Below, in pieces: positions 1-62,700 of a stretch of 64,000 bases of DNA (the first letter of the stretch is position 1; each line of letters starts with the position of its first letter). Source of the stretch: Psammoneis japonica (lineage: Eukaryota); contig QPGO01000015.1 in NCBI GenBank assembly GCA_008632985.1, forward strand, positions 373,998 to 437,997, given 5' to 3'. The notes beneath the pieces are model-generated. The model was not told the origin of the DNA, made no database searches, and saw only the letters and a program-made list of their open reading frames with translations. The position numbers and the translations under genes were made by a program.

Positions 1-3000
1 TAGCATGTCTCATCCAACAACCATGTCAGGTTTGCCCAATGATCAGCTGTGTGTGTGGTGAACTTCACACACAAGTTCTGCAGTTGTGGACAATTCTGGC
101 AACTGGAAATTGGTGGTGTGAGAACTGTGTGCCATCTTAACTCTTTGTTTGCCAGAATAGATTAGATTGGAATTTTTTGCATGGTGTGCAGATGCACATG
201 TTTTTCATGATGTGCACCACCACACACCACAAGGGTGGTGATGCCAACAGCCACAACAGCGTTGTTGCATTTGCCATTGTTGCAGAGCCACCATGGCAGG
301 TGATGTCCTCCACCATTTTCCAGTGGCATTTTTTTATTTCAATGTTGTGGTTGCTGTCATTGCCAATTTTTCCTCTGCAACAATTTGACTGCATTCATGT
401 GGTTGCTGTTGTTGTTGCTGTGTGAGACATTCCAACTGTGAGCTGTGCTTGGAATTGTGGAAGGGGGGCAAAAGAGATGCAAGCAAGCTTTTGTTTCATG
501 GTTAAAGCAAGACATGTTGTTGTCTCTTGCATTGTCATTCAGTGCTCAACACATTTCATGTGATGCCTTGGCATCACACACTGATGCATGTTTTCTGGCT
601 ACACTCATTTGTTGCATCAGAACAAATGGAGAGCACTGTTGGTGGCATGGCAGTGAACTGTCACAGCAATGCTTTTTGTTCAGATTCAGGTGCAAGTGCT
701 GCAGGAATGGCAGGATGCATGCCAGTTTAAAGAAGTCGCTCTTCCTTTAAAAAAATCATTTGGAAACTGTTGTTGCGCGTGATGCTGTTGGATTTCAAGT
801 GTGGATGGGGGGCAAAAGCAACAGATGCAGGCAAGCTTTTGTCATTTTTCAAAGTGAGTTTACATTGTCTTTTCTTTGTTCAACAGATTCCATGCATCAC
901 ATGCCAACACACATCATTTTTTACACCTCGGCACTGCACACTGATGCATGTGGTCAAATGTCTTCATTGCCTTCTTGTTGTGCACAAGGTCTTCTTCTTG
1001 CACAGGCCTCTTCCTCCCTTTCTTTGGTTGACAGGTCTTTCCATGTGTGAGACCATGTTTGCTGAAAGAGCACCACTGCAAGGCACACACTCAATTAAGC
1101 CACAGCACAGAGTGGCGCATGTTGTGTGACAGACAATGCACGTGCACATTGCCAATTTTAAACTGGCAGTTGCTGCACTTTGTTGCACCCAACATGTGTT
1201 TTAGATGTGTTGATGGCAACAATCTTAAATTGCACTGGCAGTCTTCTGTTCAGCTTTTCTTTTCTCATTGGCTGAGGGAGCCTTGTCTGCAGTGCCTGTG
1301 GACAGACATCTCCTTCCCCATGACTTCCTTGTCAAGATGCCTCTCAGAGGATCAGGGTGCAGGACATGTTCTTTGTGCATTGCATGTGAGCTTGTGCAAG
1401 TGAACAAGAGACAAAAAGGCATTCAGTGGACAAACAGCAAAGGGCTGGTCTTCTGCAAATGGATGCAACTAAGATCAGTGGAAGCTCACCTCATTTTCTT
1501 TTGTTGGTCAGTGCAAGAAATGACGGGTGAAACAGCAGCTGCAATTTCTGATGGCACTGGAGGTCAAGCAGTGGCTGGGGGAGCCATGCAGGACTCCAAA
1601 TCAGCATTCTCCATGGCAGTGTCAAGGGAGCTGAAGGTGAGCATAAAGACATGCTTGCCATTGTCCATGTCCATCATGCCCATGCCACAAACAACCGTGA
1701 TTTTGCAATGAAAAGTGGAAAACAGCAGCACAAAAAGCAAGGGTTAGCTGAGGGAATGTGAAGTGCAAAAAAGGACAATCCAGCGTAACAGAACAACAGC
1801 GTTGTGATGCACACTTGCCCATTGTTTGACAATCCACCAGATTCCATCCTGCAAATGACAACACCATTCTGTCAATGATGGTGGCTGGTTGCACCTGTCA
1901 TGATGCAAGAAATGCTGATGCAACAGCCGGTGAGTCACAAAGTGAAAACAAGATGGCAACACAACAACACACCAAGTCAAGCCATCACAATGCACCTCGC
2001 CATGTTGGCAATCACTCCCCATGGCATCGAGGTGCTGTCAATCACAATGACTCCAAACGGCAACATGCCACATTGGTTGTCTTTGTGTTGGATGCTCTGC
2101 AATGCGCCACACAAAAAAATGCGTGCGTGTTGCTGCAAGCTGCCTGCCACTGTGTTTTTGGGGGCTGTTGTGTGACTCAAAAGACATTTGCAGCACTTGG
2201 CATCAGGCAGCATGTGCTCCTGATGCCACCATCTGGTGCTGCCTCAATTGTTTCAGGCTTGCCTTCACCATGCTTGGCATCCATGGCTGCAAACAAGATT
2301 GGCATCAGTCAGGTGTCTGTGCTTGATGTGTGTGTGGGGTTGGCCAACAAGTGATGCACTGAACCCATCTGACTTGCACTGGCCTGCTTCTCAGGTGGTG
2401 TTGTCCTCCAAATCCTCATTGGAGTCACCCAGGGACAGGGCAAAGAAGTGATTTGGTTCCTCTTTGCAAGCCTTGCACACCACCCTGCAGCTCTCAAACA
2501 CACACTCAACTCTTGCTTTTGCAGCTTTGTCAAGCTCCTCATGAGTGTGCAGTTTCTGTGTGGCTGGCTTTCCATTGCTGTTCATGTGAAACATCTTGAG
2601 ACATTTCACACCCCATGCCTCAAACTGAGACATTCTTCCACATTGTGCACCTGGCATTGTCACCACCATGCAATGCCCAGCATTTGATGCCTTTCTCTCC
2701 TGACTGGCAACCCCAGCAATTGAGGAATGTCTCCATTCCATGGCCCTGGTGCTTCCTGCGGACCTTGGCATGACTTTCCTTGCCTTTGGCAGAGACAAGT
2801 TTGGCAACAGCATGTGTCCATGGGACAAAACCCTGTGGGATCATCTGCCTTTGCCGTGTGTTTGAAGTGTTTCACTCAAATGAGTCAACTGGCAGCTCGT
2901 CTTCTGGCAATGATGCAGGTGCAAAACCATTGTCAATCACAGGCAAAAACAGCAAGATGTGGCCATTGACCTCATCCACTGGCCTTTGTGGCACAGAGTT

Positions 3001-5450
3001 GCCTGTCTTCATGCCATTTGGCTTTGGCACAAAATGTCACAGAGACAACATGCTTTTGCAGCACTGCTGCCTTGTGTGGGAAGATGCTTTTTGTGTCACC
3101 TTTGAGGCACACACCTTGAACAACACACTGGCCTCCATCTGATGCCCTTTTGATGCACCATCATCAAATGCAGTCAAGACATTGCTCATGAGCAACTGGT
3201 GCACAAGCAAAAACTTCTCCAGTCTGGTGGAACATTTTGCCCTGCCACAATGTGGCCTGCATTGTGCAGAAACACAATGATGGGTTTGCTCTTCAAACAC
3301 ACAACCCACAAAAAAGCACAGAACACTCAGCTTGTGTGTTGGACTGGCTTCATCAACTGGCAATTTCCTGAGCTCACACATCTTGTGCTCTCCTTTTGAC
3401 AGTGCCTTTTTCTCTGGATGTTCAAGCAGAGATGGCAGCTCAACCTGCTTTTTCATGGTTGGCTGACTTGCTGGTGCTGGTTTCAATGAGACATCATTGT
3501 GACCTTGCACATTTGCAGCAGCAATGTTGGTGTGCCTTGTGCACTGTCAGGTGATGAAAACAACAGGTTGTCACAAGTTGCGCCATGTTGTGGAGTTCAT
3601 GAGACCAGCTTGTTTCTGAAAAAAATTGTGTGAATGGGGAGTTGTGCAAATTCCCTGTTGAATTGCTCTTTGGATCACATGTGGCCAACTGTGCCAAAGT
3701 TTCTCCAACTCCATTTGCACACATGATCATGAATGCATGCACCACATGCCACTCTTGTGCAACATCATGATTGCATTGATGGCCTGTCAATGCACACACA
3801 CCACATGCACAGATGCTCACACTGCTGCAGCTCTTGACAGTGATGGCAGCATGCTTTCTTCATGTCCCAGCTGTCTTCTTTCCAGCTGCAATGCCTTGAC
3901 AGATTGATCTGGTTTCAGATCATTGTGTGCTGGATTGACCCCCATCTTTGGAGCTTCTCACACTGGCCAGCCAAAAAAAGCCATGCCACATTTTCCAGTT
4001 TGGCAACTCCACCATCTCACTTGTGCACAATCATTTGGTGTGCATGAAGTTGGCGACCTGTGGCAAGGCATCACCACAATCAAGCATCTCCCAGTGTTCA
4101 TCTCCATCTGATTTTTTGCTGTGATTGTGAGCCCCATTTCTGGAAACAGCCTGTGAAGATGTGAGCACCACCATGGGTGGGAGGAATCCAGCTCCACTGG
4201 GAGCCAGGGTGGCATTTGGTTCTTTTGTTTGCACTGGAGAGATTGGCGCTGTCACCTTTCTGTCTGCAACAGCTCTTTCTTCTTTCAACAATTGCAGAGC
4301 ATCTTGCCATAAAAAATGGCAGTGCTCAACTCCGCATTTGCCACCATGACAAGTGACAACACACCCAGCAGCATTGCAACAGCCCCCCACTTGCACCATT
4401 TTGGACCACATGAGAAAGTCAATGAAGTCAATGTCATGTGCACCTCTGATTGGCAAGAAAGACATTGAAAGCCTCTTCCATTGAGCGCCCACCCAAGATG
4501 CTGGTGTTGATCTTGCCAGCAACATGACTCAGAGCACTTGCAACAGAGCATTTGCAGAGATTGCCAAATCTTCCTTGGCATGCAATTTTCAGGCCTGGAC
4601 AGGCTCTTGTCTCCATTGCCCACAGTTTGCAGCCATCAAAGCTGTTGATTGTGGGCTGTTCAAAGCAGCAAAATTGCCTTGGTCAGCAACAGAGAGTCTT
4701 TTTGCAAAACAATCTCTGGGTGGGTTCTTTGTGCCATTGTTGACAGCTGGCTGATGCCAGCAATGGCACTTGTGTCATGGGAGCCCTGCAGCAGGGGAGA
4801 CATGCAACCCAAAAGTGCTCACTCTGCAAAAGCTGCACAAGCTCAGGCTCGCTCCACTGAGTGTGTGTCTTGACATGACTGTGTGTCTCAACTGTGGGTG
4901 ACTCGTGTCATGAGCATTGCAGACTCATCTGGCTCCTGAGGACATGTCTGGTGAGCAAAAGCTTCTGCTCATAGAAGACAACATTTGTGCATGTGTGTGA
5001 AGAGAGAGCACATTTCACAGGATGAGTCTTTTCATGACAACACATGTGCCAGCCCAGGTGAGCAGCTCTCACAGCTGTCAACAAGAACAGCAAAGTTTGC
5101 AGCTGCTCAATGCCCCTTTCCCTGCTTTTGTGGCACATGAAAAAGGAGCAGGGGGTGAGCTGGGTTGTGAACAGGAGATGAAGTGCCTTGGGTTGCTCAG
5201 TCATCTCCAAGGTGAGCGAGCCAAGGATCAAGGAGAACCTTCATCAAATGCAGCCAGCCGCACACCAGAGGGTGAAATGCAGAGAAATGAATGAGCCAGC
5301 TCACAAAAAGAGCAAAACAGCCAAGAACCCAGAGAGATGCTGGAGCTTGCGGCTCATTTGTTTCTTCATTGTTTCATCACTTCTCATGGAATCACAAGGG
5401 AATAGAATGGACTTGTTTCTGTGCGAGTTTTTGCGACGTCAACATGCCAT
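1..5450. other. TpA- and CpG-depleted, CA/TG-rich hypermutated block (decayed repeat/TE DNA, family not identified)
   Basis: Only about 20 TA dinucleotides in 5.4 kb by manual scan, mostly TTAA/TTAG/CTAA. CpG is rare. Overlapping Cys/His-rich ORFs contain almost no Tyr. Confidence 0.85.
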
Positions 5451-5775
5451 CGGACCAAGGTTGGTTTGAAAGCGCAGCAAAACTACATCACGGGTGGTGT
5501 CTTGGAATGCAAAAGCCCGTCACTGCCTGGCGTGTGTCATCTGCGAGGGCGGGCCCAAAGCGATCAAGCGTTGCGCTCGACTCACTCATGATGATCCGTG
5601 AATTGGACTGGAGAAGGGCTCGAAGAGCTGGAGGAACAAGCCGAAGACAATGAAGATGGCGAAACGGCCAGTCGTAAGTTTAATCCGGACAACAAGTGTG
5701 AACTTGTATGGGCGGGAATGGCTTCGAAACAGATGTTCTCGACTTACACCTTTCAATCCTGTGAAACAACGACAA
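5240..5775 (+). pseudogene. PRP3: Frameshifted fragment of U4/U6 snRNP protein Prp3 (C-terminal part)
   Basis: Across frames reads HRTKVGLKAQQNYITGGVLECK..ACVICEGGPKAIKR..NWTGEGLEE..KFNPDNKCELVWAGMASKQMFSTYTFQSCET, which resembles the Prp3 C-terminal domain. It has frameshifts and no intact start. Confidence 0.75.
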
Positions 5776-38845: not shown

Positions 38846-39149
38846 AGGTTGAGCTGGCAAATCTCAAGCTCAATCTCAGCCACAAAAGCTCAGCAGCAGG
38901 AGCCCTCAGAGAAACCAAGGCTCTGCTGCCGGAGCTGTTGCAGTGCCGGCTGATGGTCCAAACCCAGCAACTGCCACCACTGCTGCTGCCTTCACAATGA
39001 CAAAGCCGCTGCCGACCATGCAAATGCAGGCCTGTGCCACTCTGTCTTCAGCCACTGCAATCTCATGCACTGGCACAAAGTTCCCATGATTGTTGTTGCA
39101 TGCCCTGGCACCCAATGGAGTCTCCTCCCACAGCCATCCCACAAGGCAA

Positions 39150-47420: not shown

Positions 47421-47451
47421 TTGACGTTGCACATGAACTTCTCATGTGCAT

Positions 47452-47528
47452 GTGCCAGGCAGTTACCCCAACCAACAAGCAATTGCTCAAGTGCCAGGCA
47501 GTTGCCCCAACCAACAAGCAATTGCTCA
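47452..47528. repeat. 39-bp tandem duplication at the 3' end of the CRE-like element
   Basis: gtgccaggcagtt(a/g)ccccaaccaacaagcaattgctca occurs twice. Confidence 0.85.
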
Positions 47529-47739
47529 CTTTTTCCATTGTTTCTGGGTCTTGTTTTTCTGAGGATGGAGACATGGTTGGATCACCAGGCAATTGCACTT
47601 TTGGGGCACATGCAAGGAAATCTGAAAGCAGGCACAGGTGTGGCTTTCTTTTGTGCTTTTTCAAGTTCTTGCCTGTTGGGGTCTTTGCTCAGCATTTGGA
47701 AATCAAGCGATGCAGCTCTCAGAGCTGGTGACCAAATCT

Positions 47740-48400
47740 GACCCAGCTGAGATGAGAAAAATTCCAACTGGATCTCCAGGTGTTGGCAAGTCAGCTCTGC
47801 TCTTCTTGATGGCACCATGACATCAACTGTTGCTTCTCAAGAAAGCACACACAACCAAGCAGCCTGCTCTTGCAAGGTGGAGGCCAAGGATGAAAAAGGA
47901 TGCTGCACTCTTTTTGTGGAATGTGGAGACCAGCCATCTGTGCTCAAGATGTCATTTTCCCGAGAAGCAGCCCCAAAAGATTTCCTGATTTGGCATGCAG
48001 AAAGAATTCTGTGGCTGTGCCAAAGCACTGAAGCCCAATCCTGCCATGGCCATCAATTGCACAAACAGTTGGAAACCTGCCATGGCCAATTTTGCTGATG
48101 TTGATGCTGACTTCGTTTGTGGCTTGATCTTGGTGTGAACTCAGCATGCACAGCAAGAAGCAGCATGGCTTTGACAAGCAAACACTCTGGCAGGATTTTG
48201 CCAGTCACATCCCAATGATGGCTCCACTTGCTTCAGTCACTGTCTGGCTTGTTTCCCCAAGTGGTGCCAGCCTCCAACACATCCCACCATCTGAATTTTC
48301 TTCCAATCATGCTGAGCTGAGGTGACACGCAAGAGCACCAACATGGTGAACAGGACAGGGCCTGAGTCACCTGGTTCAAGGATCTGGCCATTCACGCACA
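47740..48400 (+). pseudogene. P-loop NTPase remnant (possibly Crinkler-type)
   Basis: IPTGSPGVGKSALLFL Walker A motif. The rest is degraded. Confidence 0.4.
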
Positions 48401-49801
48401 ATCTTTTGTTGACTTCTGCTTTCTCCAATGCTCAACAAGTGCTCTTTCAAGATGGCACCAATGTGCTGAAGCACGCTGTCACTGCAATGGGTGCACCCGC
48501 CACAGCAGAGCCTTTCCCCAAAGAGGGACACTGACTGGACTCCTCAAGCACAGCAAAATCATTTGTTGCACAAAGGCAGCCAGGCATGCTTTGGTCAACT
48601 CTGCCTTTTTTTCACAACATGTGCATTGTTGGAGAGTTTTTGTTGCCACCTTTTTCTCTTTCTCATGTTGCAGTCCAAGGGGTCATCAAATTTTGTTTTT
48701 AAGGTCACCCTGCCCACACTGGACGGTGCCGATGAACAACAGGGAAGGCCATTCATGGGAGCAAGCACACTGTTGACAACCAGCTCTGGCCCTTCAAGCA
48801 GCCCTTTGATGGTGCCACAGATGGTGCCTGCATTGGTTTCTCCATGTTTTTGCAGATTCTTCAGCGCCGCTTCCTTCTTGTGCCACATTGCTTTTCAAGT
48901 TAAAACACCAGCCAAATGGCGCCCAGTGTTCTCCCCTGCCCTCCTTGCAAGCCCATTTTTTGGACATGATGACTGCAGATTCTGACCAATCAATCAGCTG
49001 TCAGAGAAATGACAGTCAAGTGAACAAATGGCATGGAGCTCCCAGCAAACTGGCGACAGCGACAACATGTGCGCCAGCAAAAGAAAAGAGAATGTGAGAA
49101 GAGGCACGGAGATTGCAGAGAGAAGATCCACCAGACAAGGTGCTCAAGCACCCTCTGCATGCTGTGGCTCTAACTCAGGAGTGTGTTGGAGCAGATCAAT
49201 CTGAGACATCAGATGCAAGCAGCAGTGAGATGTTGGAAACAGTGTGGGCAGACCCCAAAGATGCTCGAAGCCACTGCAAATGAAGACCCCCTGAGCAAGC
49301 ACACACTGCAGCTGTGTGAAAGAGCAGCAAGGTGAGCTCTGAGATTGCATTTTAGAAGAAGCAACATGACAAGCTTGTTCATTTGAGCAAACCCAAAAGA
49401 GTTGGGTTCTGACATGAGATGTGCGCTCACTGTGTGTTGCTTCAGCAGGTCCCATGCCTCTGCCATCAAAGACGATTGCTCGGACACTTCCTGGCCCACA
49501 GAGCACAAGAACGGTTGTCCATGTGCAAAAGGGGGGCAGGCGTGAAAATTCTGAAGGAAATGTTTCTCACCTGCTCCACGTCAGGAGCAGAGCACCAGCA
49601 GTGACAAGCTGGTGTGGTCAAGAAATAGAAATGCCCGAAAAAATGCGCAGCTTCCAGCTCCTGGCTGCGCGAACAGTGACACCGCTGTCCGCTCACTTTT
49701 TTGTCTCGGGTTCTCGTTTTCCCGCCATGATGCCGTGGCTTCTTGCACATTTGTCCCTCACCCTGCTAAGCTCTCTCTCTTCCGATTCCCGAAACCTTGA
49801 A

Positions 49802-50563
49802 ATGAAGCCGAGGCTTTATAGTGCCGCATTCTGTCCATATGCTCAGAGAGTTTGGGCTGCATTGAACGAGTTGCATGTAGATTTCGAGTATGTCGAATCG
49901 TTGGGGTCCGGACTGGAACCGTCCTATACCAAAGTGCCGGAGCTCTTAATGGTCAATCCAAAAGGATTGGTACCAACTCTATCATATCCTAACAAGAACG
50001 AAGTGTATTGCGAAAGTATCAATATTTTGAAGCACCTATTTTTGAAGGATGACACAAGTGGCGCGCATTCAAAAGAGGTGTCAACCTTGGAAAAGGAGGC
50101 AGTGCGGTGGAACGAGATTCTTTGTTCGCCCTTTTACCGAGTTTTGATGAAACAAGATATGAGTGAAAGTGAAGCTGGGTGGAATGACATGGTCCGAGGA
50201 CTGGAGCAATTCAGCGAGCGACTGCGATGGAAGACAAAGAGTGAAATTAGCTTCTATGAGTTCAACGGCAAGCGGTCCGATGCTCCATGCCTCGTGGATT
50301 TCACCGTCTTTCCCTTTGTTCACCGACTCTATATTATTCAGCATTATAGAGGGTTTTGTCTCGCAAACACTAGAGGGGTGTCCAAGGACGTGGAGACTAA
50401 ATTGAAAGCTTGGCAAAACAAAATGGAGGAGCGCCCGTCAGTTCGAAAAACACTGGCAGATGAAAAGTACTTGGTCGCAGTATACAATCGCTACGCAGAC
50501 GGAACAGCACAATCAAGAGTGGGCGACGCTGTCCGCCAAGGAAAGGAAGCTCATGAAATATGA
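49802..50563 (+). CDS. Glutathione S-transferase (omega/lambda-like, CPY active site)
   Basis: FCPYAQRVW, VNPKGLVPTL, ESINI, LVDFTVFPFVHR. The true start is probably MKPRLY at 49802. Confidence 0.9.
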   Translation: MKPRLYSAAFCPYAQRVWAALNELHVDFEYVESLGSGLEPSYTKVPELLMVNPKGLVPTLSYPNKNEVYCESINILKHLFLKDDTSGAHSKEVSTLEKEAVRWNEILCSPFYRVLMKQDMSESEAGWNDMVRGLEQFSERLRWKTKSEISFYEFNGKRSDAPCLVDFTVFPFVHRLYIIQHYRGFCLANTRGVSKDVETKLKAWQNKMEERPSVRKTLADEKYLVAVYNRYADGTAQSRVGDAVRQGKEAHEI

Positions 50564-50720
50564 TAGCTATACTTTACCATCATACCGTGCCGAAAAAGTG
50601 CTTTGAAATAGGAGTATCTTTTCAGAACGTAACGATATGTCATTTGACGACTTTTTGTTACATACCGTTCATCAGTATGTTCATCAATGCACCGAGGCAG
50701 TATCTTCAATCTAACGAGAG

Positions 50721-51461
50721 TCATTGCCGCGAGTCCGTCGGTAGCATTGCCCATGAGATGTACTCTTCTCGCAGTTCTTGTAGGTTACTGACAACTCTTC
50801 TATTGCAGGTCGTCTTGACGATTTTTGAACCCACAGAATTAAAACCTGGTGGCAGCGGCAGAAGACGAGGCAACGGAACGCGCAGATTCAATACCAAATC
50901 AGCTGAAAGCAACCATTCTTCACTGCCTGTCTCCTCCCAACTGAGAGAGTTTCCTCCTGCAAATGTTGACCGGTCCATTACCTTCGAGAGAACATTTCCC
51001 GCCGCACTTCCGCTTACAATGTTGGTCCGTGAGTCCAAAATCGAAATTGAAACTTTGTTTTGGTCTGATCTGTCAATGCGATTGACAAACACTGGGGAGA
51101 GCTTCAAGCCGAACCACTTGATGTCTGGCTGCCTGCATTCCCAGAGGTCGTCACCCTTGCAAACAATCATCTTTGTTCCCAAGAGAGCTATATTACTATC
51201 GTCGCTATTAAGCCACTCCGGTAGTGATCGAGTCTCCTGCGCACCTGGAGGAAGGGTGACTCGCAGGCTCGAAGACGATTCACCTTGGAAATTTATCGCT
51301 GACATGTGAAGCCCAGTCCGACACGGACTCCTCCAGTTCTTCTTGCTGACGACTTGGCCGAAACATGAATCACATCTCCTGTAGGAGTCGGTAACGTGCA
51401 GAAAGGCTGCAGTCAGATTAACGCACAAGAGAAACAGGCTGCTGGTAATCAGATTCGTCAT
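50721..51461 (-). CDS. Plastid-targeted hypothetical protein (DUF1997-like)
   Basis: Signal peptide ending AAF. 246-aa ORF of normal composition with WFGLKLSPVF and PPGFNSVGSKIV. Confidence 0.7.
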   Translation of the reverse strand: MTNLITSSLFLLCVNLTAAFLHVTDSYRRCDSCFGQVVSKKNWRSPCRTGLHMSAINFQGESSSSLRVTLPPGAQETRSLPEWLNSDDSNIALLGTKMIVCKGDDLWECRQPDIKWFGLKLSPVFVNRIDRSDQNKVSISILDSRTNIVSGSAAGNVLSKVMDRSTFAGGNSLSWEETGSEEWLLSADLVLNLRVPLPRLLPLPPGFNSVGSKIVKTTCNRRVVSNLQELREEYISWAMLPTDSRQ

Positions 51462-52324
51462 GGTCTTCCGATGCTCAATGCTACAGTGTGTCGATTTTGG
51501 AATTTTGTGGGAGGAGACCCCCCAAAGATAGGAGTGACGTCACGATTCCGTCCGCACGCAATTTTTCTGGCGCCGCGATCGATCGCAACGATGGGGCGTC
51601 CACCGTCCATGATCATCCTAGCGTCGGCATCGTCGAACCTGCAAGATCCATCAAATTGGACATGAATAGCACATTAGCAACTAACCCAGGTCCAGGGTGC
51701 GAGTTTCAGTCTCTCGTAGATCTTAGTTCTATGTTGTGTAGTCCACGATGATGAACAAACAATGGTTCATACTTTAGGCACTTTGTCTACAATTTCGCGA
51801 TGGTGCATGTACGGTACCTTATCCCAATATACACATTAATCTGTGCAATAGAATTATCTTTGGGGCATACTTTTGCAGCTGCTCAGTGTGCGTGCTGCAA
51901 ATAGTCGTACGTATCAAGGACGATGAGCACTGTTACTTTCTCTTTTCTCCTTCGATGTTCTGATGAAGCCTCAATTGCAAATGGTAAGAACAACGACGAA
52001 GTATGTATTGCATTGTCGTCTTATTCGCTGCAATGATGAAGAAATATTCACCACATCACTTCCGAGACAGAGGCTACTTTTTGTGGCTCATGTGAGATGA
52101 TAAATTATGGCTGAACAGCTCAATTGCTTTTTTTAACACTCGCCGTTTGTCAAGGCACAGTTCTAACATCTTTACTCTCTATTCGTCTGCACATAACAGG
52201 ATACGATACATATCCGTTGAACGGCGCAATCGAAACACTACATAGCTACAAAAAAGCGACGAAAAACAAACGAAAACGTCTCCGTATCTTGAGTGAATCT
52301 TTTTCATGCTGAATGTTAGTCTCT

Positions 52325-53015
52325 TTAGATCACGCCAACCTTGCTCGCAACATCAAGCGCATCAAAGTCCTTGCTCAACCTAACATAGCTCTTCTTAAGA
52401 CCCCGCGGAGTAATCAGAGTGTTAACCTTTTCGCATTCAATGTTGTAGAGTTCCTTCACGGCTGCCTTGATTTGACGCTTGTTGGCTTTGATGTCAACAA
52501 TGAAGACAAGCGTGTTGGAATCTTCGATAAGCTTCATGGAAGACTCAGTGGTCAACGGGTATTTGATTATGGAATACTTGTCAATGGTGTTCTTCTTGGG
52601 AGTGCTTTTCCGGGCATACTTCGGCTTGCGCTCCAACGAGAGAGTTTTGGGTCGATAGAAGTGCACTTTGGCGTGAATCCGAGTTCCCTTCTTAGAGATA
52701 CCCTTCTTCAAGGTCTTTGAGACCGAACTAGCTTTTGCTGTTGCATAAGAAATAGTGACAAAGGGAGTGAGTTAGTACATTATTCGTCAAACGCAAACAC
52801 ATACATCGCCCGCCAACGATCACGGCAATAATTCCGTCCGTCCTTCGCCGACATCATGGTGTTGCGTGAGAGTGTAGAAGTGTCGGTCGACGGCCCCATT
52901 GGCTCCCCTTTTCTCTGGCGCTGAATCTTTATCATGTTCTTATATATCCAAAACACACAACGAATCATGACTATCAGCTTCCGATCACCCGCAGAAACTT
53001 ACATGCTCCCGCCAT
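52325..53015 (-). CDS. RPL23A: 60S ribosomal protein L23a (uL23); exons 53015-53003, 52737-52325
   Basis: [47 protein letters not shown]. Short first exon ATGGCGGGAGCAT|gtaag. Confidence 0.95.
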
Positions 53016-53347
53016 TGTGCTATCGTCGCGACGAAGTGAACGATGTGGGCAAAAGCGGTGGAGATTGATTTCAATACAAAATCTACGTATGGTACGTAGG
53101 CAGTAATCAGGTAAGAAGTACACAGTGCGTCCATCAACCGAAACACGGTACGTACGTAGGTCAGCGCGTTCACACATCATCAGCACTCATAGCGATCTGC
53201 GGATCAGCGGCCAGCGGCAAGCGGCACACATCACCATGATGAGTCAAGACCATCATTGAATCAGGGGTCCACATCATCAGTTCTTGTGTCTTGGCAGAGA
53301 ATTTTCTCATTCTATCAGTTGAAGCCGATTGAGTAGTAACGCGAAGG

Positions 53348-53953
53348 ATGAAGATTAACGCACAGATGAGAGCGAGCCGCTCATGGTTGTGGCTTGGCGT
53401 GATTGCGGCGTGCTTAGCTTTGTGTCAAGGGTTCACCCCAAAGAATAGTTTCGCTTCAAGAAACTCTATTTTTCACGATCGCGTTTCCCTTCAAGTCGGG
53501 GACTTACTTGGTGGACTTTTTTCCAGCAAGGAGGAACAAGATCCAAACAAGCCTACAAGAGTTGTTGAAATTCCTTGCAGGAACGTAAAAGTTGGTGGTT
53601 TGAGATTCTTTTTAGGGATATACTTAGTTGGTGAACAAAACAAACCGAAACCGGGATCTTGGAAGTCGAACAATGTCGATGACAAAATCAATATGTACTA
53701 CACGGACGGGACGGCAATGTGCAGTATTGGCTTGACAGAATACGCAATCACTGTTGACCGGTACGGATCGTCACCCTCTCTCGAGTACGTGTTGCAAGAG
53801 AGTGTTCTGCTTCACGGCTTACTTGATGAAATAAATAAACTCGCTTTCGAGATGGATGATATAGAGGAAGATAACCGCCTTGTGCAGTTAATGGCGCCGG
53901 GAGACGCGATCGAGAAAGCTCGCGAAAAATTGCCAGCAAGAAAGGAAGAATAG
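53348..53953 (+). CDS. Probably plastid-targeted conserved hypothetical protein (paralog A)
   Basis: Signal peptide then GF. Homologous to 63154-63888. Confidence 0.8.
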   Translation: MKINAQMRASRSWLWLGVIAACLALCQGFTPKNSFASRNSIFHDRVSLQVGDLLGGLFSSKEEQDPNKPTRVVEIPCRNVKVGGLRFFLGIYLVGEQNKPKPGSWKSNNVDDKINMYYTDGTAMCSIGLTEYAITVDRYGSSPSLEYVLQESVLLHGLLDEINKLAFEMDDIEEDNRLVQLMAPGDAIEKAREKLPARKEE

Positions 53954-54249
53954 TAGTGGCTGTTAGTAATCCTTATTTTTAACCATCCAGTAGCCATCAA
54001 CTCTTTTGTGCAAACACCGGTTGAAGCTGTATCGTATATAGGTGCAGAAGTCTTTGTCGAACAGCGGGCTTTCCGGCCCCGACAGAGGACCGACGCCACA
54101 CCTAGTAGCTGGCACCTTTTCACCACAGAAACAAAGTCTCACAGTCACTGTCTACTACCTCCTGTGGTAGAATTGATCTCACCAGAACTGACGTCGAGAT
54201 GAGGAGCCGTCGAGGCTTTTATGTCCTTCACTGATTTCAAAAACAGGAC

Positions 54250-57200
54250 GAGTGGTGATGCAGTCTACCCAATGATTCTGCCAACGTTGGATGCACTGGT
54301 GCTTGATCGGGGACAGTCCAGCAATGTCGAGGACTTCCTCTGTCAGGATTTGAACAGAAATTCAGTTGTGTGCGAACGCCTTCTTTCAAATCCCTTCATG
54401 ACAGGTCACTTGATTCATCAGATGGGGAGAGTCAGGACAATGGGGAGAGTCAGGACAATGCTGTCTCCAAGTTGGAAAGGTTCAAGCTGTGACATCACCT
54501 TTCTCAATGCTTTCCCTGTCAGCTGGTCCTCCAAGGAGCAAGCACCACCATTTCCTTCCATCATTTTCACTCTTTTGTGTCCTGAAACTTTGACACCAGT
54601 TTTTTTTTTGCCAAGTTCTGTGTGCATGTGGCTCCTTCCAGCAAAATGGGCATGACAGAATTTGAGCAGGATTTCAGCCAGTTGTGAACAATTGTTTGCA
54701 CACTGTGGTTGGATTTTGTTTGCAGGTTTGTGTGCTGTTAGCTCCATGTGCTGAGTTTTGCTCTTGTGCCACATGGTGCATGCCACATGAGAGAAAAACA
54801 AACAGCAGTGCTGGTTGTTGAGATGCACATCTGTTGGCACCTGCAACAGTGTCTCTGCACAGAGGAGACTCATCTGCTGTTTGGACAGCTGCAAGATGTC
54901 TCATTGTTTTCTTTCACATGGCTCTCAGTCTTCAAATCTTCTCATCCTTAAGTGGCAAATGATGGCTGCCCCACATGATGATGGAGTCCAATCAATGCAT
55001 CATCACAAGCACCACAGAGGCAATGGACCACATCTCTGAGATCCACAAAGCAAGGCCACCTGTGCTGCTGTCTTGCAATGCATTGCTCAGCAACCTTCAT
55101 TGCGCAAGACCCAACAGGGCATGTGTTCACTCACAGCATTCTTATGTGGTGCAGGCCAGCCATTGTCTGCATTGGACAAGACGCACCCCCCAAGCACTTG
55201 AACAATTGCACCCTTTCCAGGCTGCAATCAGAAATGCCTTGTGTGCCTTGTGAGTGTCCTTGGCAACATGGCTTTGGGGTTTTGCACCACCCACTCAGAA
55301 CATGGATGTTGCACAACCTGTGTGCAGCACACTTCAGCAAGGAAACAACTTGGGTGTAGAAGCAGATGGCATCAACAGCAATGGTGCAGAACAGGAAAGT
55401 GTTGTGTGGGTGGCACCCAGTGGCAGATCCCAGAATGAGGAGACAGAAGAAACCAGCCAGTCTGGGAATGAATCTGACACTGCCGCCTCAAAGACAGGAG
55501 CTCCTCTGAGTGCAAGGTGGGGCACCACCCAGCCCACTTTCATGCCCACAGGACCTCACAAGCTTGCCCAACAGTTGACAGTTGATGATGGCAGTCAAGG
55601 CAGTGAATTGAACACATGAATGCTGGTGCATGCTCATCATGAAATTTGGAGAGAAAATGATTGCACAGAAGCCAGGAACTCCTTGTTGAGATGTTTTCAA
55701 TTCTCCAAGAGGCCAACTCATCTTGTGTGCCACACCCTTGGAAGGATGGCTCTAGGAAAAACCATTGACCAAGCTTGAGAAGTTGCCAAAGAATGACAAG
55801 AGCAAGATGATGGGCCACAGGAGCCACAAGTGCCACATCATGAAGAAGCCAAGGTTTTCTTGAGTGTCTTTGTGGGCAGCAACAAGGCACATGTGCCCCA
55901 TCCCTTCAATGACAATTGCACGGGACTGCACCCCAACTTGGTCCCACTGCCCCAGGAAGTCTCTAAATTGGGCTGGCTGCTCTGCTCTTTGCTCTTTTCA
56001 ATGTCAGCCACATGCCCTCAGCTTTTACGTGGGTTTCTACGTGCCTTCTCATGCTGATGTCACCCTTCTCAGATGGCGTTGATTTGGCTCCAACAAGCCC
56101 ATTCTGTCCATGTTTGCCAATGGTGCATCCTCATTGTGCAGCATGATGAGCAAAGTTCATCACTGGAAAATGACGAGTGTCCTGGCCTTTTGGCTCGTGT
56201 GCTGGTTGTCATTTCTTGCAATTTTCTGTGAGCGCGGATCCGCAGATGCTGCTGACAATCTACATGTCACTTCCCTGGCCTGCTTTTGTCCTTGTGAATC
56301 GGTTCTCAATGCCACTTCTTTTCCTTGCCATGCAATCAAGTCATTCACTCTTTGTGGTGCAAGTGCCGCTTCTGTTGTGTGGCCCTTTTCAGCAAGAACA
56401 TTGCTTGTCCTTTGGAGTCATTTGATTGTCATCAATTTGCTGCTCCCATCGGTCTTTCTGTGCAAGATCTGGTGTTGTTTCTGTGTGTCACCTCTGACTG
56501 TCTGTGTGCCACTTCTCCAGACCACTTTTGTCCTTGCCAACTGGTCTTCAACCTCTCTTCTTTTCTCCACCGTGCAATCAAGTGCTTCACTCTTTGTGGT
56601 GAATGTGCTGCTTCTTTTGCAGCCCTTTTCAGCAAGAATGCAAGTCAACCTGTGGTGCCATTTGATGGTCTTTGGTTTGCTGCTCTCATTGGCTTTTCTG
56701 TGCAAGACTCAGCATTGTTTCCATGTGTCAAGAACATTTTCTCCAATGACCTGCTTGTCTCACCTTCAAGGCTCCTTTTGTGGACTGTTTTAAAAAACTG
56801 TCTGAGTGCAATTGTCCGTTTGCAGTTGTGGTGTGCCTTCTGTGGCTGTCATTGACAAGCATGCTACAAATCCCTCGTGTGAACCATTCCTTCTCAGTTG
56901 TCTTGGTGGGGTGTCACCTTCTGGTGATGCCCATTCCGGCTGATCCTGCGCAAGCTCCTGCCGCACTTGACTGTGCACTGGGGGTGTGGGTCAACTGGTG
57001 CTGACCCAGCTGGCAAAGGAGTGACAGCACTTAAAACACAGATCTGTTTTTTTTTGGCTGGCTGCTCTTTGAATGTGAGGCCTTCAAAACTGCCTTTCCA
57101 CAGCTGACTGGGCAAGAGGTTGGTTTCCAATGGATGGGATGGTTTCTGATGGAGAGGAACATCAATGTTTGTGACCCAGGCCAACAGAGGGACACCCAAG

Positions 57201-60200
57201 CTGACAAGGTTTGTGCATTTGAAGTGGAAGCTGATGCAAAAAAGGAGTTTCAGGCCTGCAAGTCCCTGCAAAGGGTCTGCTCCTTGAAAGCTGAGGATGG
57301 ATTTGTGCTGGGATGGCACCATTGCTTTGTGCCCAACCACAAGCAAGAGCATCTTCAATGAGAAGTCCAAGCTTGGGGCATGCATTCTCCAGGCACATCA
57401 AGGAACATTTTGTTTGCACCTTGCATGGTGAGGACCGCCACAAGGTTTTCAGTTTTGGATCACATGCTCAAACTTGGCTGCAAGTCAGCCAACAAAATGG
57501 AAAGCAGGTCACTCAGGGAAGTTGCACTGTGGCCATGGGCTGGAATCCACCAAGCACATGGGCAAAATGCTTTTCTTGTCTGTCAACAAGGACAAGAAAA
57601 AATGCCCACAGATGCACAAAATTCCACTTCCTCCCAAAGCACACCAACCATGCAAAAGGACAGGTTGGGAGCCTCCTTCCCTTTTTGAAACATCATCACT
57701 CAGAGGGAAAACTCCACCAGAGCTTTCCTGCTAAAGCCAAGAACAAGGAGATGGATTTGCCAGTGTTTGATGAAGCCACCAGGAGTTTGGTCTCTGCTTG
57801 GGATGACATGATGCTCATGGAACTGCTGGAAGGTGACAAGGACTTCCAGCTCACAATCTTGATGGACAGATCAAAGCAAAAAGTTGATGATGGGGAAGAG
57901 ATGCCCAGCAGACCCACTCCAGCAGAAAGGAGGGAACAGAGTGATTTCTGCACAAACTCCAGATGATGACAGGGTGTCCAACAGCATGTCACCCACGAAC
58001 TGTCTCAAATGATGACATGGAACAAATGCAGGTGCAAATCACAGAATCACTGCATCTGTTTGGAACCTGCAACTCTGGCTGGTGCAGAGTGCACATGGTG
58101 ATGCAGCAGAAGCTGCTGCGCCACAAGGACAAGGCCCTCCCATCCACTCTTCCTGCAGGCCCAGCAGGCCAACCCCCTGAGGACACCACCAGTGGTGAAA
58201 GACACACTGGCAAGCAATGGTGGGTTGCAAGCAGCCATGGAGCCCACAGGGAAGATGGGCTCAGCTTTCAGCTGTCAGATGGGTGAGGGGAGGAGGGGAG
58301 AACCCATCCAGCATCCAGCACAACAGAGGGATGGATGTTGAAGATGCCAGAATCACAACAGTGCCAACATGTGGGTGTTTCAGTGACAACAAACTTCAGC
58401 ACCAGGTGAACAGCCAGTTGACCCACGAGTGACATGGGGAGATGCACCAGGAAACAAAAATGAACCCATGCTTGGAGCAGCTTTACAAAACCCAAAAGGC
58501 CTGCCTCTTTTTAATGAACATGAAAAGAACCACAAACTTTGCTGCACAACAGAGCAGATGGAACTGGACAGACTGGGGCTGCTCACAGAAGTCAATGCAC
58601 ACTGGCTGGCACATGCTGAACAAAGCTTGCCACCTTCCAGAAAGGATGGTGGAATGGTTTGAGATGTTGGACACTGTCTGGACACATGCAATGCCAATGA
58701 TCACCTTTTTCTGCAGCTCCAATGGGAAGGCAGTGTAGTTTGCCACCAATGGAGCCACACACCACATTCATGAATCAGGAAGGGACCTTTCTGGTCCAGG
58801 AAGATGGGCCTGGACAACATTTTGTGGGAGCAACAACCACATGTGCAACAATGGAGTTGGTCATTGTGGTCAAGGGAGGACAGCATCTTCTGCCCCTGCC
58901 ATGTGTTTGTGGATGACATGAGTGATGAAACAGTGGAGTGAAAGGAGCAAGGTGATCAACTTGTGGTGATGCTCAACCCCAACACCAGTGTGAGGAGCGA
59001 CTGTGTCAAACTTGTGTTTGACCAAATGTTCCTCCAAGAGTTGACCCTGGAGAAGCATGGCACCATTGCACTGCCCACGCAGAAGGTCAAGCTCCAATTG
59101 ATGGCATCTTTTCCAAGACAATTCAGGTGGAAAAGTCAGGCTGCCTGGGCTTTGATCAGTCCATGCACAGTGACCAAAGACTTCCATGGGTCAACATGCC
59201 ATTCCAGACAGCCTTTCAGTCATGAATCCCCAGAAACACCACATCCCAGTGCATGCCAAAGGACAGGCCAAGACCCAAGAACCATTGACAATTGCAGCAC
59301 AACTTCAAAAATGAGTTGGTGACTGGGAATGGCAGGAATGTGATGCCCAGCTGTGGAAAGGAAAGTTGCCAACTCATGACCCACACTGCCAAGCAAGGCA
59401 CCTTGGATTGGCCAGAACACAGAAACCAGTCCCAGGGCAATTGGTGATGGTGGAAGGAAGCACTGGAATGAGGGGGGCATTTGAAGTGCTGGATGGATGG
59501 TCATCATGAGCAATGACCCTGCTTTTCATGCACTGCCAATGAGAGAGGATTGTGTGAGCACATGGACCACGAGTGCACACACCACAAAATGCTGCCAAGA
59601 AAGAGAGAGTGAGTGAGCACATGGATGAGAGCACATGCTGGCAGTGCCACAGCCCTGTGTGTTGGGTCACTCAGCAAGGACTGGCAGTCAACAATGCTGT
59701 TGTTGCATTGGGGAAACAGAAAATTTTCTAGACCATGCCATCTGAATAAAATTTTGTGGGTCAGGTGTGACAGCAGTGGTTGCCACTGGAATTGCTGTGG
59801 AAGCTCAGGTTGAGCCCAAGAAGCTCATGCCTTCAACACTGCAGGCACACATCAACAAGTTGCACTTGGACATCAGGTGGCTTGTTGAGGACAGCAAAAC
59901 AAAAAGATGACAATGGCACAGCACTTGCACACGCAATGTGAGGAGATGGGGAAGCCATTGCAGTGTTGTGCATGTCCTGTCAGGATGGCAAAGGCACATC
60001 AGCTTGGATGACAAGGTTGTTGGGAGAACAGATTTTGAGAAGATCCCTTGGATGTGAGTGTGCACAGGGTGGAGCTGCCTGGCCTCCTTTGTTGATGGCA
60101 GCACTCATCTCCATTGTCAGCAAACTGCACAGAGTGAGTCAAGGACCAAGGAGCATTCAAGGTCAGGCATGACAGCAATCAAGCTCTGTGGAGTGCAGCC

Positions 60201-62700
60201 AGTGCACAGTGCAACCTCACTGCAAACCACAAGCAGCACAACATTCTCTCAGCCTTTCACCTCAGGTTCTGGAAGTCTTGGACATCACCTTGGATGCCAA
60301 CAGAGTTCAAGGGACATCCAGATGATTTTGCAGCATGCAAGAACCTTGGCTGTCCTTTCCAGAAGAGCTGGTCAAAATGCAGGAGATCATTTGGGAGCAG
60401 CAAGAAGCACATGGTGAGCTGTGGCCCTTCTGGGTTGGGCAGCACAAGATTGCATCCAACATTTCTGGTGACAGGGTTTGCTGCACCATTGATGACAGCT
60501 GCTGAAGCAATGGGTCAACAAGGGTTGCTTCTTGCACACTTTTGGTGCAAGGAATGTAGACCAGGACACACACAGGAAGGGTCCATGGCAGACCTGAAAC
60601 TTTCCAGATGGAGGTGAGTTTCCAAACATGTGTGTCTGGCTTTTGCATTGTCAACACAAGATGCTGCATTGGTGGGGCAAGTCACTGGTCTAATTGTGCC
60701 TGAGGTTTCATCCACCCATGTGCTCAGTCTCTTGTTTGGACAGAGTGGCAGAAAACAAAAGTGGTCCAGTTCCCTCACCAAGCTGTGGAGCTGGATGACA
60801 AAGGCCAGGACAGATCTGGAGATCATCAAGATCACATTGCAACAACTTAGACAGCAGAAGGATGGTGTCCCCATGGAGCCAATGGCCTCACAGAATGACC
60901 AGCACATGCAAGCATCAGTGGACTTGTGGAAGACTGTGTTTCATTGGATTGGAGCTTTGAGCAATGCTTGCTGTCAATGGATGGGTGCCCACAGACATGG
61001 GAGTTGATGGGTGGGGCAACTGATTGCCAACTGCGTGATGTTGTGTGGGACCAGCAGAAGCACTGCATCGGCATTGTGCATTCCACCACTGCTTGTGACT
61101 TGTGACTTGCACAGGCATGGGTGGAAGCAGTTTGTGGACAGGTGCAGTTTGAGCACTCAGTGAGGAGATCTCAAAATTTGCCTCCTCAAATGGATGATTG
61201 ATTGTTTGATGCCTCCCTCAAGGAGCTCTTGCAACAAACTCTTGAGTGCTTTAAGGCATGGATCAACAATGTCCAGGCAGGAAGAGATGCCCACCAGAAA
61301 TTGCAAAACAAATGAGAAACACAAACATGGAGCAGGCCTTGTTTTGCAGATGTGGCTCCATGGTGCTGACAACAATTCTTGACATTTTTGCTGCTTTGGG
61401 TGAGGGTGGTGCTTCCTCTCACATTGTTCACAAGTTGATCACAACTTGGGGCAATGCAAATGTCATTTGGTCTGGCAATGAGCTGTGATCTTTGAGTCAT
61501 CATTTGCTTGTTCATTTGTGGCTGTCATGTGGTCCACCCAGCTGGCCTGTCATCAGGATGGAAGAATGTGACCTTTCTTTCTTCTGCTCAGAAACACCAA
61601 AACCCTCAAATGGAGTCATTGCTGTGTTGTCTGTGATGACACTAAACCATTGTCAAATGATGACATTGACTGCTGTGCTGAAAACAGTTGGAGACAATGT
61701 CTCCCTGAGTCTTGTCCCTTGCAGCACATCAAAGATGGGCAGCCCCCCACATCACGAGAGATGCTCCATTCATCACACAGCCACTTTCTCTGCACCTCCC
61801 AAAAGCAGCACTTGCACAGCAGAGGGGATCTTGGACCAGCTTCACATGCCTTGAGAAGTTCTGTTGCCTGTTTGCAATCTGCCACATCATGCACCTCCTT
61901 CAAGTTCCAAGTCCAAAAGATTCTCTTGAAAAGGGGCACTTGGTCAATCACCGCCAGTGTTGTTGCATGAGCTTTGCTTCTGCAGTGTCTGTGCTGGCGC
62001 CCCTTGCTCAGCTTAGAATCTGCAAAAAATGTTGCAAAGCAAAACAGACTTCTTCATTCTTGCATCAATGGTGAAGGAGGAAAATTTCCATGTGCGTGAC
62101 TTCCAACAATGTGATCTCACGAAATGCACCACCATCTTTGTGGTGGAGAATGAGAAAAAGCACAGCAAGCACAAACCAGGGAAGCTCTGTTGGGATGACC
62201 TGGGTGCAGAAGATTTCTGCACCAACTCAACCAATGTGCACCACAGTTGGCTGTCAGTTGTGCCCTTCTGCCGCAACCACTTTTTGACATTGTCGTCTCT
62301 CTCTTGCTCTCCTCACACCTGGCAGGCCTGCCTGGAGCTCAGCACTGGACCTCAATTTTTGACCCTCTCTTCTGTTTCCTTCTCTGTGGGGATCTCATCA
62401 TCAACATCACAAGATTTAACCAATGCTGGAGTGTTCTTGCCTGGTGGAGGGCCCTCACACTCCAGCGGAGGTTGTGAACATTGTGGTGTGATCTGAGCCT
62501 GCTGGTGCTGCTGGGTGCTGTGAGCAGCTTTTGGGATGGAGTGCACACTTGTTGTTCTGGGTTGGTGGCAGTGGCAAAGCTTCAGTTGTGCCAGTGCTTA
62601 AAAAAGAGTGGGTTTCGGCACTTTATCACACACTGGACTGTCTTGCCAAACACGTCCCTGACATGATCAGCGCACGACAACAACGCACATGATGCAATTC
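54250..62700. other. TpA- and CpG-depleted hypermutated TE block
   Basis: Very few TA (mostly TTAA/CTAA/TTAG/CTAG) and few CG over 8.4 kb. Contains an 18-bp duplication (~54422-54460) and a ~242-bp internal repeat (~56331 and ~56573). Confidence 0.85.
57000..61100 (+). mobile_element. Heavily degenerate LINE (APE and RNase H remnants; RT apparently largely deleted)
   Basis: WGDAPGNK...LQNPKGLP...LGLLTEVNAHW (APE start), SVHRVELPGL and FKGHPDD (RNase H), VSKH. Confidence 0.7.

Follow-up and report, generated by a model that had tools for sequence, protein, structure and literature searches.

How does a diatom come to carry about 32 kb of DNA nearly devoid of the dinucleotide TA, directly next to genes in which TA is as frequent as usual? 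This question is raised by a stretch of 64,000 nucleotides from Psammoneis japonica (GenBank assembly GCA_008632985.1, contig QPGO01000015.1, positions 373,998 to 437,997 of the forward strand; hereafter the window, numbered from its first letter), in which gene islands alternate with five such depleted blocks. An earlier reading of the letters alone (the original prediction) had described the blocks as poor in TA and rich in CA and TG, and had ascribed them to a mutator which acts on silent DNA, changes A:T into G:C pairs and thereby erases TpA. The contrast between blocks and islands proved to be real, with coordinates right within a few hundred bases, and the idea of a domain-restricted, directional mutator is supported by a gene duplication, a retrotransposon remnant and a satellite located in the window and withstood all three observations named in the original prediction as refuting it. 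Taken together, silent chromatin domains of this diatom are likely to undergo in-situ, context-specific A:T to G:C hypermutation. The comparisons described here establish the direction of the change, its context rule, its restriction to domains, its timing after amplification and its independence from CpG loss.

The blocks, with edges placed by the first or last TA, and the island between the last two of them are as follows.

1 to about 5480/5675: strong depleted block, continuing past the left end of the window (observed/expected ratios, o/e, of 0.00-0.14 for TA, 0.02-0.14 for CG and 1.9-2.1 for CA+TG); at its right edge CG is back at 5424 and TA at about 5675
About 17834/18117 to 19808: mid depleted block, TA erased, about half of CG retained
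21742 to about 23877: young depleted block, made up of the right part of duplication copy A, an insertion resembling a miniature inverted-repeat transposable element (MITE) and the left part of duplication copy B
About 32214 to 49766: depleted block of 17.5 kb, of the mid type between 32.2 and 38 kb and of the strong type between 38 and 49.7 kb
49767 to 54266: normal gene island with GST-like and DUF1997-like genes, read depth equal to that of the flanking depleted blocks
About 54267 to 62793: strong depleted block of 8.5 kb with multi-copy repeats at 54673-55339 and 56007-57340

Base composition was compared between the gene islands, a mid class (18201-19400, 21900-23850 and 32601-38000) and a strong class (1-5400, 38001-42400, 44201-49700 and 54301-62700), resulting in the following densities.

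Gene islands, 28,201 bp: TA 40.0, CG 56.6, and TA+CG+CA+TG 239.3 per kb
Mid blocks, 8,551 bp: TA 5.6, CG 36.8, and TA+CG+CA+TG 240.0 per kb
Strong blocks, 23,700 bp: TA 2.8, CG 8.1, and TA+CG+CA+TG 241.6 per kb

In raw counts, the islands hold 1129 TA, 1597 CG, 2023 CA and 2000 TG, the mid blocks 48 TA and 315 CG, and the strong blocks 67 TA (o/e 0.04), 191 CG (o/e 0.13), 2797 CA and 2672 TG, where about 950 TA would be predicted from the island density. TA thus falls from 40 per kb in the islands to 2.8-5.6 per kb in the depleted DNA, the GC content of which is about 0.50 and not lowered. As the sum of TA, CG, CA and TG stays constant across the three classes, the missing TA and CG are now present as CA and TG, just as transitions would give, with CA and TG in balance in most blocks. 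The TA depletion of the original prediction is thereby confirmed, although the accompanying loss of CG in the strong blocks had been understated. Mid blocks lose CG only in part, and three blocks without TA retain half or more of it. Moreover, CG recovers 100-350 bp ahead of TA at three edges (5424 vs 5675, 49424 vs 49767 and 62616 vs 62794). Short gene-adjacent zones with normal or high CpG and nearly no TA are found at 5424-5675, 17843-18066, 49424-49767 and 62616-62794; hence, the erasure of TA enters DNA which is probably unmethylated and promoter-proximal.

The direction of the change can be read from a direct duplication of about 1.7-1.8 kb with copies 89% identical, half of which is covered by the young block.

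21186 to 22872: duplication copy A, normal up to 21741, hypermutated from 21742 to 22872
22873 to 23264: MITE-like insertion, about 392 bp long and with terminal inverted repeats of 30 nt
23368 to 25044: duplication copy B, hypermutated up to about 23877 and normal beyond
24253 to 24993, minus strand: open 246-aa frame in the normal right part of copy B

Left of the switch at 21741/21742 copy A is normal and copy B depleted, while right of it copy B is normal and copy A depleted. Polarised from the normal to the depleted copy, the 169 differences comprise 59 A>G, 73 T>C, 18 C>T and 13 G>A changes as well as 6 transversions. The spectrum is therefore strongly asymmetric, with 132 changes from A:T to G:C vs 31 from G:C to A:T (32 vs 8 in the left part, 100 vs 23 in the right part), and since the bias runs toward the depleted copy in both parts, polarity tracks the block and not the copy. 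Among the 37 differences that are not A:T to G:C, 25 represent CpG decay and 6 are the transversions. Downstream of the open frame (23920-24252 in copy B) the asymmetry persists at 29 vs 4, so that purifying selection on the normal copy is not its cause. Within the coding sequence, copy A differs from the frame of copy B in 63 codons non-synonymously and in 18 synonymously, has gained a stop and has lost all five Tyr codons (to His twice, Cys twice and Arg once). The tandem duplication (20057-21741 and 23920-25044) spans the end of one gene without Pfam match, that of the 246-aa frame, and the start of another, the frame of which lies at 20757-21560 on the minus strand; the mutated halves are the redundant ones.

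This pattern bears directly on the comparison with repeat-induced point mutation (RIP) of Neurospora and other fungi, of which the original prediction had suggested an adenine-directed analogue. RIP depends on the DNA methyltransferase RID and acts before meiosis. The functional likeness stands, as both processes leave permanent and dense transitions in a dinucleotide context within selfish or redundant DNA, kill reading frames and produce a dinucleotide footprint. If duplicated sequence were recognised here by homology and then mutated, the tandem gene duplication, the satellite, the retrotransposon and the multi-copy repeats among the affected DNA would all be natural targets, and diatoms do encode DNMT4, a relative of fungal RID, as stated in the accessible part of the respective source (PMC9998398). 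However, RIP mutates both copies of a duplicate, whereas in P. japonica only one of the two is mutated at every homologous position, with the polarity flipping at 21741/21742, so that duplication as such is not the trigger. Likewise, the direction is opposite: RIP converts C:G to T:A at CpA, creates TpA and lowers GC, whereas here A:T to G:C changes (132 vs 31) destroy TpA at a GC content of about 0.50. Additionally, most of the depleted DNA is single-copy at a likeness of at least 85%, although hypermutation itself would push copies under that threshold. A RIP-type mechanism is accordingly considered very unlikely.

The same duplication yields the context rule. With all changes folded onto the pyrimidine strand (R, purine; Y, pyrimidine), T>C conversion was obtained in the following proportions.

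ATA: 24 of 30
GTA: 38 of 53
CTA: 5 of 45
TTA: 5 of 27
R-T followed by C, G or T: 56 of 304 (18%)
Y-T followed by C, G or T: 3 of 391 (0.8%)

RTA is thus converted in 62 of 83 cases (75%) as compared to 10 of 72 (14%) for YTA, and outside TpA the conversion reaches 20-26% at R-T-T vs 12-22% at R-T-G and R-T-C. The target is 5'-R-T-A or, on the other strand, T-A-Y, meaning a T after a purine and best before A, equivalent to an A before a pyrimidine and best after T. The strong difference between R-T-G (18 of 98) and Y-T-G (0 of 125) further indicates that new CpGs arose in the depleted copy and that they do not reflect CpG decay in the normal one. The fate of a TA accordingly depends on both of its flanks.

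RTAR: converted to CA in 25 of 30
YTAY: converted to TG in 14 of 16
RTAY: CA in 6, TG in 6, CG in 4 and TA in 1
YTAR: TA retained in 6 of 13

This flank rule, derived from the duplication, predicts the TA remaining in the other blocks. Of the 66 residual TA classified in the strong blocks, 40 are YTAR and only 1 is RTAY, and relative to island density survival amounts to 24% for YTAR, 5% each for RTAR and YTAY, and 0.3% for RTAY. An apparent island of TA inside the mid block fits the same class:

19426 to 19619: apparent TA island within the depleted block, 10 of its 13 TA being TTAG or CTAG (YTAR class)

A>G and T>C changes alternate along the duplication in 82 strand runs (66 +/- 5.7 expected). 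As both strands are affected without strand-coordinated tracts, this points to site-by-site action on duplex DNA. The changes outside TpA show no clustering near TpA within the duplication.

CpG decay accounts for the loss of CG and for a part of the gain in CA and TG, with C>T changes at 25 of 174 CpG sites (14%) as compared to 6 of 635 other sites. It cannot remove TA, however, and TA loss is both faster and wider than CG loss: expressed as -ln(1-p) and computed from the duplication counts, the rate at RTA is about 9-fold that at CpG and about 150-fold that at background sites. CpG decay is therefore a separate, slower overlay, and TA loss is uncoupled from it, contrary to the coupling to 5-methylcytosine at CpG that the original prediction had considered. 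The error-prone repair envisaged there fares no better. DNA polymerase eta, which has its hotspot at WA (W, A or T) and produces many transversions, could act in synthesis after deamination of 5-methylcytosine, as in somatic hypermutation initiated by AID, and both the preference for A after T and the CpG decay in the same domains would agree with this. But transversions make up only 6 of the 169 differences, AA sites have no advantage over CA or GA, a 3' pyrimidine is strongly needed, and the loss of TA exceeds and precedes that of CpG. Such a polymerase-based origin thus fits poorly and appears highly improbable.

The original prediction had itself raised the miscalling of modified bases. 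The letters were compared with public sequencing data. Run X1 contains 95% of sampled words from 46501-56500, and contigs of X1 and of a further run, X2, were compared with the assembly over 44001-64000. The X1 contigs extend over 44018-64000, their k-mer depth being about 60, and the longest contig of the run measures 315 kb. One single contig (47236-56105) crosses depleted, normal and again depleted DNA with 10 differences from the assembly, both borders being unbroken and of equal depth, and another one (57017-64000) displays 3 differences. These high-depth contigs carry the TA-free sequence, with no TA in its place. Long contigs at such depth require accurate reads, which makes it unlikely that a noisy long-read platform has miscalled modified bases. 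In single-copy depleted DNA, the assembly and X1 differ at 12 positions, among them TA/TG, CA/TA and TG/TA, two CA/CG and two adjacent doubles exchanging CA and TG, which suggests recent or continuing activity of the process. Depth is far higher in the multi-copy parts of the strong blocks (190-4400 vs 60), with values of 1700-4400 in the repeats 54673-55339 and 56007-57340 as compared to about 60 elsewhere. Run X2, in turn, covers gene islands only, at very uneven depth, and is transcriptome-like; no X2 contig was found on the depleted blocks of 44001-64000, which is not taken as evidence of silence. In one X2 contig, position 63408 is joined to 63514, the skipped stretch of about 105 nt probably being an intron.

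A related concern is that the blocks might never have possessed TA, being foreign or transposon DNA of such native composition. This concern was addressed by protein comparison of two features.

32498 to 36758, minus strand: remnant of a non-LTR (long terminal repeat) retrotransposon resembling a long interspersed nuclear element (LINE), 5'-truncated, recognised by homology
18345 to 19223, minus strand: decayed copy of a diatom-conserved gene for a hypothetical protein, weakly matching 2OG-Fe(II) oxygenases

The LINE frame used as query (33774-36767, minus strand, two TGA read through) has 5484 homologues at E <= 0.001, the best of which shares 43% identity along 974 residues, its full length being about 1900 aa. 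Among four homologues scanned for domains, an APE-type endonuclease was matched by three and a reverse transcriptase, weakly, by one. Including its C-terminal part the remnant extends over 32498-36758, lacking the first about 500 residues. The family (APE endonuclease plus reverse transcriptase, about 1900 aa) is very large, with relatives encoded in 218 stretches of a metagenome collection, and is barely detected by Pfam RVT_1. At the 16 columns in which at least 60% of 24 homologues carry Tyr, the remnant has Cys at 10, Phe at 2, and His, Arg, Asp and Tyr at one each. Other conserved residues are largely retained (W 14 of 15, H 9 of 9, G 34 of 37, R 16 of 19). Its Tyr content is 0.6%, as compared to at least 2.2% (median 3.5%) in all 150 homologues listed, and its sense strand carries 7.7 TA per kb vs 25.6-58.8 in 67 relatives. 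TA-free transposon relatives, a further point raised in the original prediction, were not encountered, as 80 related metagenome loci have a median TA o/e of 0.66, the lowest 1-kb value being 0.20. With relatives of normal TA and Tyr content, the element was hence not born TA-free. The decayed gene copy, which has 16 homologues (best 46% identical), repeats this picture on fewer sites: Tyr is retained at none of 4 conserved columns, and Cys amounts to 4.1% as compared to 0.3-2.0% in the homologues.

A third type of comparison is offered by the satellite.

40441 to 41657: satellite of 186-bp units, 6.6 units, with a higher-order period of 371 bp

Across its seven units, nine adjacent column pairs display CA or TG, never TA or CG. 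Such swaps between units would result if an ancestral symmetric TA or CG had been resolved independently in each unit, in place and after amplification. Within the region 39000-42100, diverged copies of an about 300-bp repeat lie on either side of the satellite (40125-40432 and 41666-41972, 92.5% identical).

An artefact or a native composition would be easier to maintain given that the library type of X1 is unrecorded, that X1 may be the assembly's own reads and that most of the strong-block DNA has no identifiable ancestor. Against it stand the contigs of up to 315 kb at depth 60, which cross the borders at equal depth, the LINE relatives with normal TA and Tyr, and the comparisons of paralogues, of 24 homologues and of satellite units, all of which show TA as once present and then changed. 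An explanation along these lines is hence scarcely credible.

Several observations nevertheless count against in-situ hypermutation by one uniform process, or at least limit it. Firstly, for the reasons just given, X1 is strong support for the letters and not independent proof of them. Secondly, the depletion signature was found in none of the 80 related metagenome loci (L001-L080), a search by patterns that required conserved peptides and could miss mutated copies. Thirdly, 59 of 131 A:T to G:C changes classified in the duplication fall outside TpA and 72 on it, while in the LINE remnant the products expected of non-TpA A-Y steps are seen at none of 35 conserved columns (His>Arg 0 of 9, Asn>Ser 0 of 10, Asp>Gly 0 of 16). 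Changes outside TpA are therefore unevenly represented among the blocks; this component may differ from block to block or represent a second process. Fourthly, the sense strand of the LINE carries 101.9 TG per kb as compared to a median of 54.9 in the 67 relatives, with CA at 93.6 vs 89.2. The flank rule accounts for only part of this gain of TG over CA, and the relatives vary widely; some editing of the LINE may have preceded its integration, or a strand bias beyond the flank rule may exist. Finally, the coincidence of the blocks with transposons, satellites and pseudogenes, as originally described, holds for the recognisable parts, namely LINE, satellite, gene copies and repeats, whereas most strong-block DNA is without recognisable origin, a transposon-derived nature being demonstrated for parts only.

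Regarding the coding potential of the depleted blocks, TAA and TAG have vanished and TGA is the sole remaining stop codon. The blocks contain 172 open reading frames (ORFs) of at least 90 aa on both strands, gene-like in look, none of which reached a curated Pfam cut-off when all 172 were scanned; the top score was 20.7 bits for 2OG-FeII_Oxy_2, with a cut-off of 31.2. Frame 46235-47728 (one TGA read through) gave no homologue at E <= 0.001, and scans for Rfam families and tRNAs returned no match. In the same area, 45001-47000 displays a strong excess of C over G (342-396 vs 143-170 per kb) and a larger excess of CA over TG than the flank rule alone suggests, and the GC skew of 46001-48000 is -0.34. 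As to the genes of the window, one for a helicase has all of its named homologues in raphid pennate diatoms, at no more than 59% identity. This supports the assignment to diatoms, with no close relative in the database.

The borders of the blocks provide a further clue to how domains are set. The MITE-like element in the centre of the young block has arms at 22867-22896 and 23235-23264 that are 77% complementary, and alignment places its empty site in copy B at about 25044. It is flanked by CTGCAG, which may be a target-site duplication. The young block reaches 1.1 kb beyond this element on the left and 0.6 kb on the right and stops at one and the same sequence in both copies, in the gap after one open frame ends and before the next starts. 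As the length of the block is about one duplication unit, a Campbell-type insert and a haplotype chimera were considered as well and set aside as less likely; the length is explained more simply by the central insertion together with edges at the same gene-boundary sequence in both copies. Likewise, the 17.5-kb block has the 3' end of the LINE remnant at its left edge. From their positions, both elements would fit a silent domain that starts from a transposon and is stopped by active genes.

Edges near gene starts and ends could, on the other hand, also arise if A:T to G:C damage at T-A-Y occurred untargeted throughout the genome, with repair taking place in open, transcribed chromatin and failing in compact, silent chromatin, so that the footprint would reflect a repair deficit and not a defence. 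This would likewise agree with the TA-free zones extending into gene-adjacent CpG-rich stretches, and a pure, context-dependent transition spectrum is also what lesion plus repair would give. More difficult to reconcile with it are a rate gap of at least 20-fold between the two copies of the same sequence over a few hundred bases (132 changes as compared to at most 6 candidate reverse changes outside CpG) and the rate at RTA of about 9-fold that of CpG and about 150-fold background. Moreover, the comparable activity in Bigelowiella natans described below is episodic, concerns only two of many viral inserts and looks regulated, as far as the accessible part of the source goes. A mere deficit in repair is thus regarded as unlikely.

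Targeted hypermutation of silent domains would, by contrast, operate as follows. Inserted transposons would mark the places at or around which domains start, and active genes would lie near their ends. Within them, the preferred site would be TpA with suitable flanks, T being changed to C after a purine (5'-R-T-A) and, on the other strand, A to G before a pyrimidine (5'-T-A-Y), with the expected outcomes that RTAR is turned into RCAR and YTAY into YTGY, that RTAY yields CA, TG or CG, and that YTAR resists; A-Y steps outside TpA would be affected about 4-5 times less often. In the same domains a second, about 9-fold slower process would convert (presumably methylated) CpG into TpG or CpA, and both together would leave DNA free of TA and CG and rich in CA and TG. 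The lesion is probably enzymatic, targeting presumably proceeds via silent chromatin, and the process may well serve as genome defence.

As to its chemistry, deamination of adenine to hypoxanthine by a candidate TadA/ADAT-like enzyme is our first choice, albeit a tentative one. The context rule can be read on one strand as well as on the other, however, and thymine might be the base attacked. Hydroxymethyluracil and base J prefer TpA, and a dioxygenase of the TET/JBP type could mark T at 5'-R-T-A as 5-hydroxymethyluracil (5hmU), a further-oxidised or a J-like base, which then miscodes as C. On the other hand, 5hmU pairs well with A, so that a rate of 9-fold methyl-CpG decay would be hard to reach by occasional miscoding, and oxidised thymines should yield some transversions, of which only 6 were seen among 169 differences. 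In dinoflagellates, which belong to the same lineage of stramenopiles, alveolates and Rhizaria (SAR), 5hmU made by a TET/JBP homologue is enriched on repeats and linked to transposon silencing, according to the available part of the source (PMC11572971). There, this modification of the A:T pair is an epigenetic mark for which that part reports no mutational footprint, whereas the signature described here consists of changes in sequence. Oxidative modification of thymine is therefore placed second and is rather unlikely. A route via N6-methyladenine (6mA) was rejected as unlikely, since 6mA is found at ApT of active genes with little mutagenic footprint, as judged from the accessible portion of the corresponding preprint (10.1101/2024.10.28.620566).

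Other deaminases are known to hypermutate mobile elements, such as APOBEC3, which acts from C to U on cDNA, and ADAR, which acts from A to I on double-stranded RNA. ADAR favours a 3' G, whereas here the 3' base must be a pyrimidine (75% conversion for TAY-type vs 14% for TAR-type sites). In contrast to the editing of retroelements, non-retro sequences such as the gene duplicate and the satellite were changed in place after amplification, both strands equally and without runs. The preference for a 5' T, in turn, is shared with ADAR, which favours U 5' of the edited A (bioRxiv 10.64898/2026.01.13.699255). In summary, the process is neither RIP nor CpG decay, and a resemblance to Pol-eta repair or ADAR editing is not apparent.

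The original prediction had stated that no such process has been described in diatoms. A search of the literature, in which few subscription journals were covered, did not retrieve a report from diatoms either, yet a process of this kind has been described once, in 2026, in B. natans, a chlorarachniophyte of the Rhizaria (Mettrop et al., bioRxiv 10.64898/2026.01.13.699255); all statements on this species refer to the accessible parts of that preprint. In mutation-accumulation lines, 231 of 302 nuclear mutations fell into two integrated viral regions, and 230 of these 231 changed A to G or T to C, each of them on a TpA. The rate, about 6e-7 per site and generation, was observed in some lines only and is about 1000-fold the background. 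The genome further contains 124 clusters in which TpA is scarce and CpA+TpG abundant, enriched in reverse transcriptase (RT), endonuclease-RT and DDE domains. Its authors propose an ADAT2-like adenosine deaminase and liken the process to RIP, while the accessible text makes no mention of diatoms, flanking bases or CpG.

The likeness to P. japonica is considerable. In both, the changes are nearly only A>G and T>C (here 132 of 169), and TpA turns into TpG or CpA depending on the strand, both outcomes occurring here as set by the flanks (A>G 59, T>C 73). In B. natans they are confined to discrete, silent, non-host regions; here, they are found in discrete, sharp-edged blocks which contain the LINE remnant, the MITE-like element, the satellite and repeats, but also affected host gene copies and, in the strong class, mostly unidentifiable DNA. 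The long-term footprint of clusters poor in TpA and rich in CpA+TpG is likewise shared: 31 of 64 windows of 1 kb, in runs of 5, 1, 16 and 9, have a TA o/e of at most 0.43 and a CA+TG o/e of at least 1.52, which are the cut-offs of the preprint applied to our own o/e measure. On the other hand, depletion is deeper here (TA o/e 0.04-0.10 vs 0.45 in a B. natans region that comes from NCLDV, the nucleocytoplasmic large DNA viruses), and the exclusive use of TpA there contrasts with the non-TpA changes and the strong flank rule with resistant YTAR here. Integrated viruses are the target in B. natans, whereas in P. japonica a LINE, a MITE-centred gene duplicate, a satellite and pseudogenes are affected and no viral gene was seen in the window. 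Furthermore, CpG decay overlays the signature only in the present case as far as the preprint, which does not discuss CpG in its accessible parts, allows comparison, and the rate was measured de novo there, whereas the diatom process is known from its sequence footprint alone. Despite these differences the two are probably the same kind of process, and the present one is best filed as a diatom (stramenopile) variant of the TpA hypermutation recently described in B. natans.

For genome annotation in diatoms, the signature represents a trap, as long false ORFs result where TGA alone stops frames, old transposons are hidden from view (none of 172 ORFs at the Pfam cut-off) and Tyr codons are lost from redundant gene copies. 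In search of the enzyme, the field of candidates is narrowed by the flank rule, the equal action on both strands, the independence from CpG decay and the transposon-centred domain. More speculatively, diatoms and chlorarachniophytes might have in common an old defence spanning the SAR lineage, in which a chromatin-guided DNA adenine deaminase acting on duplex DNA and specific for T-A-Y starts out from an inserted transposon or virus, extends as far as the closest active gene and irreversibly changes all DNA in between; we regard this as possible, though rather doubtful. If true, it would constitute a natural A-to-G base editor on double-stranded DNA, with pruned redundant gene copies and reshaped intergenic DNA as side effect, and a natural enzyme making A>G changes in duplex DNA would be of interest for base-editing work. 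A saturated footprint in a diatom would, in any case, make the process no curiosity of a single species, and it may be widespread in SAR algae.

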